From assembly GCA_965116795.1 (NCBI GenBank), contig OZ220716.1:1034503-1098502 (forward strand): 64,000 nt of DNA, in the 5' to 3' direction. The stretch comes from Gammaproteobacteria bacterium (GTDB taxonomy: Bacteria > Pseudomonadota > Gammaproteobacteria > JAJFKG01). The position numbers and the translations under genes are program-made. Under the pieces are notes generated by a model. That model was not told the origin of the DNA, did not search any database, and saw only the letters and a program-made list of their open reading frames with translations. Positions 57,213 through 60,673 of this stretch are shown one piece after another; within the stretch, counting starts at the first letter, position 1, and each line of letters begins with the position of its first letter.

Positions 57213-57329
57213 ATCAACTATGGTTTTCAAATGTTTAAAAATTTTTCTTTTAGCGAAGAAATATACAAATATGGCTAGGTACAGCACATGGCTATAAGCA
57301 AAGATAAAGAAAAAAGTAGATACTAAGAC

Positions 57330-57470
57330 GCCTTACAAAGCACAAATGAATATAGGTTAAGCGTGGTTATTGTCAAGGGTGGCTTCACTAACAGTGGTGC
57401 ATTCAGCATTGCACTGCAACCCTTGACAATAACCACGCTTAACCCAAAATGTCATCATGCCTTGTAAGGC
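57330..57470. repeat. Large palindrome in IS110 right end
   Basis: 26-bp perfect stem 57355-57380 / 57419-57444; outer stem GCCTTACAA/TTGTAAGGC. Confidence 0.85.
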
Positions 57471-57506
57471 TCGTTCTGTGCTACATCTTGCGATTAAAGT
57501 ATTATT

Positions 57507-58466
57507 TTAAGTAATTGTAGCGTTTGCATTTACTTGGCCTGTTTCAATAAAATGATCGCGCATTCTTGCATTCGCTATCACAATAATTTTTCGCATTAAT
57601 GCCACTAACGCTACCATCTTTCTTTTACCAGACTCAACTAAACGTCTATAAAAATCGCCTAATGCTCCTTTACTTTTAGCTGCAGCCATTGCTGCAATAA
57701 ACAATATCCGTTTCACTTCTTCTCGACCACCTCGAGTAAATCGATAACCTTGCTTAGTGCCGCTATCGTTAGGATGAGGGGCTACACCGGCTAAGGAGGC
57801 GATTTGTTTTCGATTTGCCTGACCCAATTCCGGCATAAAAGCCAACAATGTTGAAGCAACTACTTCACCAACACCGGGTATCGTTTGCAAAATCTTTTTT
57901 GTTTCAAGCAATGAGTTGTCTTGCTCATAGATCAGATTGATTTTCTTTTCGATTTGCTTAATTTCCTCGGTAAAATACGCTATCATCCTGTCGATGCTCT
58001 CTGTAAGAATTTCTTGTTCTGGTGATTGCAAACGATTCTTTTCTTGCACTAACATTTTGGTTAACTCATTACGGCGCAGAAGTAGTTTTTGCAGTATTTT
58101 ATTTGCTGGTTCTTTGTATACCTCTAAATCAGCATGACGCTCATAACCGTACTTAGCTAAACCTAATGCATCAATCGTGTCTGTTTTACCCAGTTGGCCA
58201 AACGAACGAATAAAGTGTTTTACTTTGCGTGTATTAGCTCGATGTACAGCATAGCCTTTTTCTTGCAATGCGCGAATCAACGCTAATTCGTGTCCACCTG
58301 TCGTTTCTAACACTATCAGTGCTGAGGATAGCTTACTTGCCCATTCCTCAAGATAACGTGCGATACCGACAGCGTTATTCTCATAAACGCTGACTTCTTT
58401 TTCCCCATGGATGGCACTGTAAAACTCATACTTACCAATATCAATTCCTATAAATTTCTGATACAT
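57507..58466 (-). CDS. IS110 DEDD recombinase/transposase
   Basis: IGIDIGK, LETTG, KTD.IDA RuvC-like DEDD; IPGVG, GVAP...DSG catalytic Ser domain. Confidence 0.96.
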   Translation of the reverse strand: MYQKFIGIDIGKYEFYSAIHGEKEVSVYENNAVGIARYLEEWASKLSSALIVLETTGGHELALIRALQEKGYAVHRANTRKVKHFIRSFGQLGKTDTIDALGLAKYGYERHADLEVYKEPANKILQKLLLRRNELTKMLVQEKNRLQSPEQEILTESIDRMIAYFTEEIKQIEKKINLIYEQDNSLLETKKILQTIPGVGEVVASTLLAFMPELGQANRKQIASLAGVAPHPNDSGTKQGYRFTRGGREEVKRILFIAAMAAAKSKGALGDFYRRLVESGKRKMVALVALMRKIIVIANARMRDHFIETGQVNANATIT

Positions 58467-58479
58467 TACATATTCCCTC

Positions 58480-58650
58480 GTGCGTTTAATGTTTGTTTAG
58501 GATTGTAAACGGGCGTTTAGCCCTTTCAACTATTCAAACGTATCGAGGTCGATCTAGGGTACCCAGATTAACACGGTTGTTAAGACCTATGATTGCACGG
58601 TCGCCCACGATCGCGCAGCTAGGTTAATTCAGCTTAGCGGCTCACCTCTT
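58480..58650 (-). ncRNA. IS110 bridge RNA (ends approximate)
   Basis: Target guides GCAATCAT and CCGTGTTAAT, donor guides ATAGTTGA and TTACAAT, each pair flanking a small hairpin. Confidence 0.85.
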
Positions 58651-58681
58651 AAAGTGAATATTAACAAAATTTCAACTTACA

Positions 58682-60673
58682 ATGATTGCGGTGATGGTGG
58701 CGGCCCCTGCTATTGGGGGTGCTGTGGCTGGCGCTATGGGTATTACCAGTAGCATTGGTGTTGGCTTAGTGACAGCCGGAGTTGCATTAGCCGGTACGGC
58801 ATTGGTGAATGTGTTAGTGCCACCACCGATGGCATCCATCTACGGATTTGATAACACACCAGCACCCAGCCCCACGTATTCATTGCAAGCTAGGGGCAAC
58901 CAAGCACGCTTAAGTCAACCAATTCCGGTGATTTACGGCAGGCATATTGTGTATCCTGATTTGGCCAGTACACCGTATTCTCATTATGCCAACAACGAAC
59001 AATATCTCTATCAGTTACATTGCATTGGTCAGGGAGAATATGAAATTGAGTCCATTCGTATTGAGGATACACCGATTGCCTCATTTCAGGAAATCACTTA
59101 TGAAGTGGTGCCACCTGGTAAGCACGTTACCTTATTTTCAGAAAACGTCATCACCGCACCCGAAGTCGCGGGCCAAGAGCTGTTATCAACCAGTGAAGGG
59201 GGCGGTTACGTTGGTGGCTTTGTGGTGAATCCGGCGGATACGGTTGCAACGCAATTGAGTATCGATATTATCATGCCACGAGGGCTTTATTATGCAAATG
59301 ATAAGGGTGGTTTAGATGCACGTACAATAACCTGGGTAGTTGACGCCAGACAAATTGATGATGAAGGTAACCCATTACGTGATTGGCAGCAGTTAGGCAG
59401 TGAAACCATGACAGCCGCGACCAATACACCACAACGGTTAACCTATCACTACAGTGTGGCACCAGGGCGTTATGAAGTGAGGGCGCTTAGAACTAACAAC
59501 AAGGATGCATCAGCGCGTGCAGGAAATGAATTACGTTGGGCGGGACTCAAAGCCACGCTTAACCAATCTGCTGATATGGGTAACGTGACCTTGCTGGCGA
59601 TTAAAATGCGTGCCACCGATAATTTATCACAGCGTGCATCGCGATTAGTTAATTGCATTGTTACGCGCAAACTGCCAACGTGGAGCAAAGAAACAGGCTG
59701 GAGTGCACCCAAGGCAACACGCTCGATTGCTTGGAGCTTAGCGGATATTGCCAGCAGTGAATACGGCGGCAACTTGCCTGACAGTCGCATTGATTTGCAA
59801 GCGTTAGCTAACTTAGATGCGACATGGCAGCAACGCAACGATTGTGCCGATGTGGTATTTGACCAACCGATTACAGTATGGGAAGCAATGACACGCGTTG
59901 CCCGTTGTGGGCGTGCGGTGTGTTTTATGCAAACAGGGATTGTGCGATTCGTTAGAGACGAACCCAGAGAAATTCCCGTAGCGCTCTTCTCGCCACGCAA
60001 TATTGTTAAGCACAGTTTAAAGTTGCACTATTTGTTAGCGAGTGATGATACCGCTGACAGTGTGATTGTTGACTACTTTTGTAACCAAACTTGGCGACCT
60101 GATGAAGTGGAAGTCAGTTTGCCTAATAGTACCAGTGAACAACCGGCAAGAGTGAGATTGTTAGGCTGCACCGATAAGAGTCAAGCAATACGCGAAGGCA
60201 AATACATGGCTGCCACCAATCACTATCGCAGACGGCTCGTTACCTTTCAGACGGAATTAGAAGGACTAATCCCAACCTATGGTGATTTAATTGCAATCAC
60301 GCATGACATGCCGAGCTGGGGGCAAGGCGCCGAAGTGGTTAGCGTTGAAGGTAATACGTTAACCTTGTCGGAACCGTTGACTTGGGATGAGAATAAACTT
60401 AACGAACATGTCATTGGCCTTCGCAAGCAAGATGGTAGTGTCAGTGGAACATATCAAGTGATGCCAGGTAATAATGCGAATCAAGTTATTATTCAAGGTG
60501 AATTTAATTTTCAACTCTATACCGGCGAATCACAAGAGCGCACGCATGTGGCCTTTGGTGTTGGCAATGCGTGGAGCACATTGGCTCGCGTTACCGCTGT
60601 GCGTCCTAGAGGAGATATCATTGAAATTAGTGCCGTTACCGAACATCCAGTCGTGCATAGTTCAGATGTGTAA
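58682..60673 (+). CDS. 3' part of central tail-tip/host-specificity protein (gpJ-like)
   Basis: SPTYSL....NQARL..PIPVIYG...VYPD, G.YEVR..R, TRSIAW, GD.I.ITHD.P.WG. Confidence 0.88.
   Translation: MIAVMVAAPAIGGAVAGAMGITSSIGVGLVTAGVALAGTALVNVLVPPPMASIYGFDNTPAPSPTYSLQARGNQARLSQPIPVIYGRHIVYPDLASTPYSHYANNEQYLYQLHCIGQGEYEIESIRIEDTPIASFQEITYEVVPPGKHVTLFSENVITAPEVAGQELLSTSEGGGYVGGFVVNPADTVATQLSIDIIMPRGLYYANDKGGLDARTITWVVDARQIDDEGNPLRDWQQLGSETMTAATNTPQRLTYHYSVAPGRYEVRALRTNNKDASARAGNELRWAGLKATLNQSADMGNVTLLAIKMRATDNLSQRASRLVNCIVTRKLPTWSKETGWSAPKATRSIAWSLADIASSEYGGNLPDSRIDLQALANLDATWQQRNDCADVVFDQPITVWEAMTRVARCGRAVCFMQTGIVRFVRDEPREIPVALFSPRNIVKHSLKLHYLLASDDTADSVIVDYFCNQTWRPDEVEVSLPNSTSEQPARVRLLGCTDKSQAIREGKYMAATNHYRRRLVTFQTELEGLIPTYGDLIAITHDMPSWGQGAEVVSVEGNTLTLSEPLTWDENKLNEHVIGLRKQDGSVSGTYQVMPGNNANQVIIQGEFNFQLYTGESQERTHVAFGVGNAWSTLARVTAVRPRGDIIEISAVTEHPVVHSSDV

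Follow-up and report, generated by a model that had tools for sequence, protein, structure and literature searches.

What leads one mobile element to the same base of a phage tail gene, time after time? The question is raised by a 64,000-nt stretch of a gammaproteobacterial genome (contig OZ220716.1, positions 1,034,503 to 1,098,502; hereafter the window, in whose numbering coordinates are given), where an insertion sequence (IS) of the IS110 group splits a gpJ-like prophage tail gene. We find that guides in the left end of this element match a 13-bp target in the tail gene and 14 bp of the element's own junction. The interpretation that we favour, with a probability of about 0.9, is a likely IS621-type insertion at an AT core, by an element whose target loop was likely re-aimed from repetitive extragenic palindromes (REPs) to a multi-copy prophage gene. 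The IS621 cycle (PMC11208160) is taken as the mechanistic model.

Predicted guides in the left end match the tail-gene target and the element's own junction

The tail gene has seven intact paralogues in this genome, all of them with an empty site, one letter for letter (GCAATCATTAACACGG). As the initial annotation had proposed, removal of the element restores the target. The interior between the two cores (57215-58681) measures 1,467 bp. In element orientation, the left junction reads GCAATC[AT]TGTAAG and the right junction ATAGTTG[AT]TAACACGG. A short repeated core, AT, bounds the element at both ends, and comparison with the seven empty sites shows the insertion to be scarless. On the plus strand, the left core is the AT of an internal ATG of the tail gene. 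A TT core drawn from the 3-nt junction overlap (ATT) was ruled out, as both the donor guide register and 57/58 relatives give AT.

All four guide segments listed in the initial annotation were recovered on the minus strand (Table 1), and the second pair indeed equals the two donor halves, covering 14 bp of the end-to-end junction. For the first pair, a match to 16 contiguous target bp had been claimed, of which 13 (positions 2-14) stand. The right-hand segment (58567-58576) reads CCGTGTTAAT on the minus strand; its base 58574 is a conserved linker G, and 58575-58576 are the CC of an almost invariant stem, paired with GG. Because this CC belongs to a stem, and because positions 1 and 15-17 do not track the target among relatives (see below), the guide reads 13 bp and not 16. 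Both target guides together were matched in 0 of 20,000 dinucleotide shuffles of the left end, and all four guides likewise in 0, which excludes a chance match. Target and donor are thereby readable from a single locus, as had been supposed. On the coding strand of the tail gene, the target corresponds to codons V-L-M-I-A; the guide G at position 13 faces the Val wobble base and reads C or T, both of which are present in occupied sites.

Relatives share the predicted two-loop RNA, guide tracking and the AT core

Among 91 loci with a recombinase match, 73 carried the donor-loop motif, 67 of these extended far enough upstream, and 65 differed from one another. Removal of one near-duplicate gave a set of 64 relatives, whose loops were read from alignment columns. 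Left junctions were located in 56 and right junctions in 58; the counts retain four left junctions that seem to be mis-anchored as well as four guides with a one-base offset. Donor guides served to find the junctions of relatives, and the donor-guide match there is not independent.

The RNAalifold consensus of the 64 relatives has both an outer and an inner stem at the target loop, and at the donor loop an inner stem. In these stems 96.9% of 831 cells are paired, with two-sided changes in 10/13 pairs (slid-partner controls, 37-50%). We also observed that guides follow their own flanks: left guide positions 2-7 matched on average 4.55 of 6 (31 distinct pairs) versus 2.34 when shuffled, and right guide positions 10-14 matched 4.07 of 5 (30 pairs) versus 3.07, neither value being reached in 10,000 shuffles. 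Position 1 matches the target in 4/56 relatives, and positions 15-17 in 14, 20 and 18 of 57, which is chance level. The family consensus fold and the guide tracking support the order given in the initial annotation, a target loop followed by a donor loop as in IS621. The fold and covariation check suggested there thus bore out the two-loop stems and the guide-flank tracking across relatives, although the lone sequence folds otherwise. The AT core, which had been set against the CT core of IS621, is real but not special: it is the norm of the clade (57/58 right and 49/56 left junctions) and stands in published supplements.

No close relative was found in 40 related genomes, nor in viral contigs searched with a single-protein query; P0002 and P0009 are 85-88% relatives of the present element. 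In one branch (L090, L100, L055, L070), the left target guide is shifted by one base and the left end is about 40 nt shorter. One genome (G049) holds seven copies of a relative (L110, L115, L118, L121, L124, L126, L128) aimed at AGCT[AT]TCTA, a different, repeated non-coding target.

Table 1. Features of the element and of the interrupted tail gene, in window coordinates
Feature	Coordinates	Strand	Remarks
IS110-group element including both AT cores	57213..58683	-	four identical copies; ends set by empty paralogous sites
Left core AT	58682..58683	-	left target / right donor junction
Right core AT	57213..57214	-	left donor / right target junction
IS110 recombinase, 319 aa	57507..58466	-	PF01548 (DEDD) and PF02371; D9, E54, D96, D99, S235
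Predicted bridge RNA	58480..58650	-	both ends predicted, the 5′ end from the junction promoter
Target-binding loop with outer and inner stems	58551..58612	-	family consensus fold
Left target guide	58589..58596	-	8 nt, target positions 2-9, GCAATCAT
Right target guide	58567..58573	-	7 nt, positions 14-8
Target-loop handshake bases CT	58565..58566	-	after strand exchange, C could pair with G at donor position 7
Left donor guide	58526..58533	-	7 donor bases and first core base, ATAGTTGA
Right donor guide TTACAAT	58502..58508	-	7 contiguous nt, no bulge
Donor-loop handshake bases CC	58500..58501	-	C suits G7 of the donor itself but not C7 of the target
Predicted -10 box TAATAT	58658..58663	-	-35 TTGATT 17 nt upstream, formed only across the circle junction
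Rfam sX15 (RF02234) match	58477..58627	+	antisense strand of bridge RNA; 44.3 bits, below gathering score 55
Candidate antisense extended -10 TGATACATT	58459..58467	+	overlaps recombinase start codons, just before the sX15 start
Long inverted repeat in 292-nt right end	57330..57470		29-nt arms, 97% complementary
5′ part of split phage tail gene, 89 codons	56946..57212	+	reads into the IS, stops as 110-aa product
3′ part of split tail gene, 663 codons	58682..60673	+	gpJ-like central tail fibre, phrog_31/469

The recombinase and its RNA compared with IS621

The recombinase is, as annotated, a 319-aa member of the IS110 family. Its catalytic residues are intact: across an alignment of 60 homologues, taken from the 120 listed, they show little or no variation (Table 1), and the D-E-D-D and S residues align with the catalytic motifs of IS621 (IS621 residues from PMC11208158). 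The two proteins are distant (phmmer E 1.5e-33). Assignment to the IS1111 group as defined in PMC11208160, of seekRNA type with a guide RNA in a long right end and a short left end, was rejected, the guides here lying in the 215-nt left end.

With IS621 and ISCro4 (IS622) (PMC11208160, PMC11208158, PMC13626964, 10.1101/2025.05.14.653916; PDB 8WT6, 9T56) the element shares the DEDD RuvC and serine Tnp domains, a predicted left-end bridge RNA with the target loop before the donor loop, guides that include both core bases, a predicted junction promoter and an 8-nt left donor guide ending in the first core base. It differs in its core (AT here, CT there; IS621 accepts AT cores, PMC11208158), in the left target guide (8 nt here, 9 there), in a right target guide that in nature is fully paired over 7 nt, and in the right donor guide (7 contiguous nt here, 9 with a bulge there). 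In addition, its donor-loop handshake base fits the donor and not the target, and its target is a coding phage gene whereas that of IS621/ISCro4 is a REP.

The right end of some relatives (L043, L038) carries hairpins with a similar TTGTCAAGG...CCTTGACAA centre, while in others the stop codon overlaps the core and hardly any right end is left. A second, distant type of IS110-family protein (26-28% identity) is present in several copies in this genome (C1 1236172, 1424845, 1480307, 1484505).

Four copies at the same base of paralogous tail genes

The complete 2.45-Mb genome contains four copies of the element, identical over 1,467 bp, and no stray element ends. It also contains 11 full terminase large-subunit genes and 11 complete gpJ-like tail genes. 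All four copies interrupt a gpJ-like tail gene at the same base, the seven other tail genes being intact (752-757 aa). The initial annotation had let its reading depend on where other copies lie, and each of the three others is indeed found in a paralogous tail gene, at the equivalent site. Around the four occupied sites, flank similarity is only 54-89%, with divergence beginning within 1-20 bp of the junctions, and the flanks of the copy at C1:99768 are 54-72% like those of the other occupied sites versus 83-89% like an empty one. On these comparisons, the four insertions are independent, because their flanks are so unlike and the most divergent site is nearer to an empty site than to any occupied one; from sequence, they are also recent.

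Read data fit this count: in run X2, the contig of the element has a depth of 270 versus 65-77 for flank contigs, as expected of four copies. X6 and X7, which belong to two other studies, have contigs that run over the right junction into flanks of diverged tail genes and may stem from strains of the same species. No circle junction was listed in four runs, which is no evidence against circles because contigs lose rare forms, and no RNA data set was listed as containing the element. A joint in X5 that skips the element (depth 6) was set aside, since four of its letters are foreign and its source is probably a paralogue. X8 and X10 contain only small shares; a contig of X10 has a related left end on a different flank, with the target loop uncovered, and was not used.

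The split tail genes are probably dead, because the reading frame of the 5′ part ends after 110 aa and the 3′ part is not preceded by any evident ribosome-binding site. This genome holds about 11 related prophages (11 complete and 2 partial tail genes), many of them with other interruptions in the tail and lysis region. In the window, two short genes at 60685-61312 (minus strand), which by eye and by motif look like a HicA/HicB-type toxin-antitoxin pair, separate the tail and lysis genes; in other prophage copies the lysis genes directly follow the tail gene. A 554-aa repeat protein in the tail module (53739-55403, plus strand), RCC1-type beta-propeller-like by eye, is present in most prophage copies at 75-89% identity.

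Probable REP targets of the clade and likely retargeting of the guide

The right target is AT-GAC in 51/58 relatives and AT-GAG in 2. In REPs with a CGTC tag, the tag varies to TGTC or CCTC and the stems almost always begin with complementary AT (Di Nocera 2013, PMC3733652). The AT-GAC and AT-GAG targets are the reverse complement of such a tag plus the AT stem base, a match that rests on the text description in PMC3733652; the text of that paper has no occurrence of 'IS110'. Tag and AT stem base equal the right target of 51-53/58 relatives, but not that of the present element. From this reverse complementarity we infer that the clade usually targets CGTC REPs at their foot and took its AT core from them. 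In one genome with ten copies of a relative, nine are listed, each at such a REP-type site. In 13/54 relatives, the target recurs in inverted orientation within 90 nt; such a test is not fine enough to identify REPs, for which we rely on the tag sequence. Five REP-type target motifs have 0, 0, 0, 1 and 0 copies in the present genome.

A quick tree places the element among relatives that target GAC; in it, the non-GA guides need five changes, at least two of them on strongly supported branches. Four relatives form a branch of their own with full support, among them a 48% relative in Wolbachia phage WOcauB1 and members from viral contigs. Its three members with both flanks carry three different guides: one matches 8 of 8 and 7 of 7 at the start codon of a terminase small-subunit gene; another, within a phrog_877 gene, 8 of 8 and 5 of 7; and a third, in a tail-sheath region, 7 of 8 and 7 of 7. 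These members came from phage collections, which biases their location toward phages; a genome-wide count is available for the present genome only. IS110 copies in Wolbachia prophages have been catalogued without a targeting mechanism (Cerveau et al., PMC3205602). Taken together, it is likely that the guide of the present element goes back to one directed at REP repeats and has since been turned to a run of conserved codons in the prophage tail gene.

Predicted junction promoter, handshake bases and a possible antisense RNA

By sequence, joining of the ends in a circle gives TTGATT-17-TAATAT, where the linear element has ATCATT in place of the -35 box; a linear promoter scan is blind to this promoter. 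The junction -35 begins with TTG in 51/54 relatives, and TAnnnT at 16-18 nt spacing is found in 26/54 versus 0-10/54 at shifted positions.

In IS621, handshake pairs rise from 1 to 3 on insertion, a pattern that is called highly conserved and whose asymmetry suppresses excision (PMC13626964). The present element has 1 Watson-Crick handshake pair before and 1 after exchange. By the IS621 handshake-base rule (PMC11208158), the target-loop base behaves as expected: it is C in 60/64 relatives and fits donor G7 (64/64). The donor-loop base departs from the rule, being C in 58/64 whatever the target base. Post- minus pre-exchange pairs amount to 0 or less in 29/64 relatives. This predicts a weaker handshake bias for the whole AT-core clade. 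Because the pattern is clade-wide and includes REP-targeting members, it is not an adaptation to phage genes.

The strand opposite the whole bridge RNA matches Rfam sX15 with an E-value of 2.6e-6, below the gathering threshold (Table 1). The Xanthomonas source locus of sX15 (L131:1851-2037) is an IS110 remnant with a bridge-like left end, which starts MNGIGIDVCKAK, and sX15 and asX7 are the two strands of its bridge RNA remnant, asX7 being on the target-loop strand. In Xanthomonas, sX15 and its complement asX7 were both seen by northern blot and described as orphan small RNAs, with no link to IS110 in the available text (PMC3300014). The Rfam sX15 family is probably a misread bridge RNA. At the place of an antisense -10 box, TAnnnT was found in 20/56 relatives scored, all within the closest 21. 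The Met-Tyr-Gln start of the protein enforces much of this motif, and for that reason an antisense promoter with sX15-type control of the bridge RNA is put forward as hypothesis only. Such an RNA would presumably be similar to RNA-OUT of IS10.

Weighing the explanations

Several points count against the favoured interpretation. Two tail sites that match the 13-mer perfectly are empty, yet a wobble is present in two of the occupied ones, and if insertions were random among 14 sites, four of four would fall in tail genes with a probability of 210/1001 = 0.21. The minimum-energy fold of the element's RNA taken singly is not the two-loop form (z -1.37), with -47.0 kcal/mol free versus -38.9 when constrained to that form. 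Target position 14 matches in only 28/58 relatives, the shuffle tests of guide versus flank ignore kinship among relatives, and the tree is a quick maximum-likelihood one of 69 proteins with SH-aLRT (SH-like approximate likelihood-ratio test) support and without bootstrap. Of the 10 empty sites in this genome that depart from the guide by at most one wobble, 6 are in tail genes and 4 are not; given these four non-phage sites and the probability of 0.21, the location in tail genes needs no preference beyond sequence.

It could be argued that the element is kept as a tamer of prophages, its RNA-guided insertion disabling particle assembly and protecting the host. All four copies split the tail gene near its 5′ end with no evident ribosome-binding site before the 3′ part, and the phage-borne relatives have guides that match three phage sites, at the start of a terminase small subunit, within a phrog_877 gene and in the region of a tail sheath. 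However, 7/11 tail genes are intact, most of them more than 90% alike in the 3′ part, and could complement in trans, and phage collections can only return phage sites; we regard taming as unlikely. Alternatively, insertion could be a reversible switch, the balanced handshake (1 and 1 pairs here, 1 and 3 in IS621, PMC13626964) allowing clean excision and a restored tail gene upon induction; late phage transcription would run antisense to the element. Such a switch seems quite improbable, since the same handshake pattern occurs in REP-targeting members and IS621 is reported to copy out mostly a single strand, leaving the donor site intact (2026 preprint, 10.64898/2026.08.31.748434). The mosaic and related nature of the prophages might suggest instead that one old insertion spread among them by duplication or gene conversion, with an incidental guide match. 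Divergence so close to the junctions, and the greater likeness of the C1:99768 flanks to an empty site, largely refute such spread, while the shuffles and the tracking of flanks across relatives speak against an incidental match; this explanation is hardly credible.

Guided IS621-type insertion remains our preferred interpretation. By analogy with IS621, circle formation would join the right end to the left end and create the -35/-10 promoter driving bridge RNA and recombinase, and the D-E-D-D/S active site would then exchange strands at the AT core. The product, a split tail gene, is observed in 4/11 copies. The AT core would be a legacy of ancestors whose insertion site was the invariant AT with which the stems of CGTC REPs begin; without those REPs in this genome, the redundant prophage gene would offer about ten low-cost landing sites, and the element perhaps rides in phage particles built with the tail protein of the seven intact copies. 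A broader account is doubtful as a whole. It would have a REP-landing AT-core clade repeatedly rewriting its target loops to multi-copy prophage genes, with wobble reading of synonymous changes, riding or taming phages, and held in check by an IS10-like antisense sX15 RNA from a promoter in the first codons of the recombinase.

Relation to published systems and significance

Family, layout and mechanism are already published, and the clade is present in published data. Supplementary files 4 and 5, at least, of Durrant 2024 (PMC11208160) contain the same donor junction (ATAGTTGATTGTAAG); the target and guide strings of the element gave 0 matches in the searchable parts of these supplements. The AT-core clade is probably the cluster labelled ISWpi12, the ISWpi12 (Wolbachia) row of the Durrant 2024 tree table showing the same protein motifs by eye only. 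In our literature search, we found no account of a bridge RNA aimed at prophage genes or of antisense control of bridge RNAs. What is added here is a guide aimed at a prophage tail gene, the donor-loop handshake departure and the sX15 antisense match.

The element is, judging by its sequence, an apparently active member of the IS110 bridge recombinases. As a compact, natural AT-core recombinase with readable target and donor and signs of recent activity, it could widen core options beyond CT. It clearly exemplifies how a guide is likely reprogrammed in nature, here away from intergenic repeats and towards a phage coding sequence. Its donor-loop handshake, departing from a rule reported as highly conserved, provides a natural exception for testing the model of insertion versus excision. 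If the sX15-type RNA is an antisense regulator, it would constitute a layer of control for bridge RNAs.

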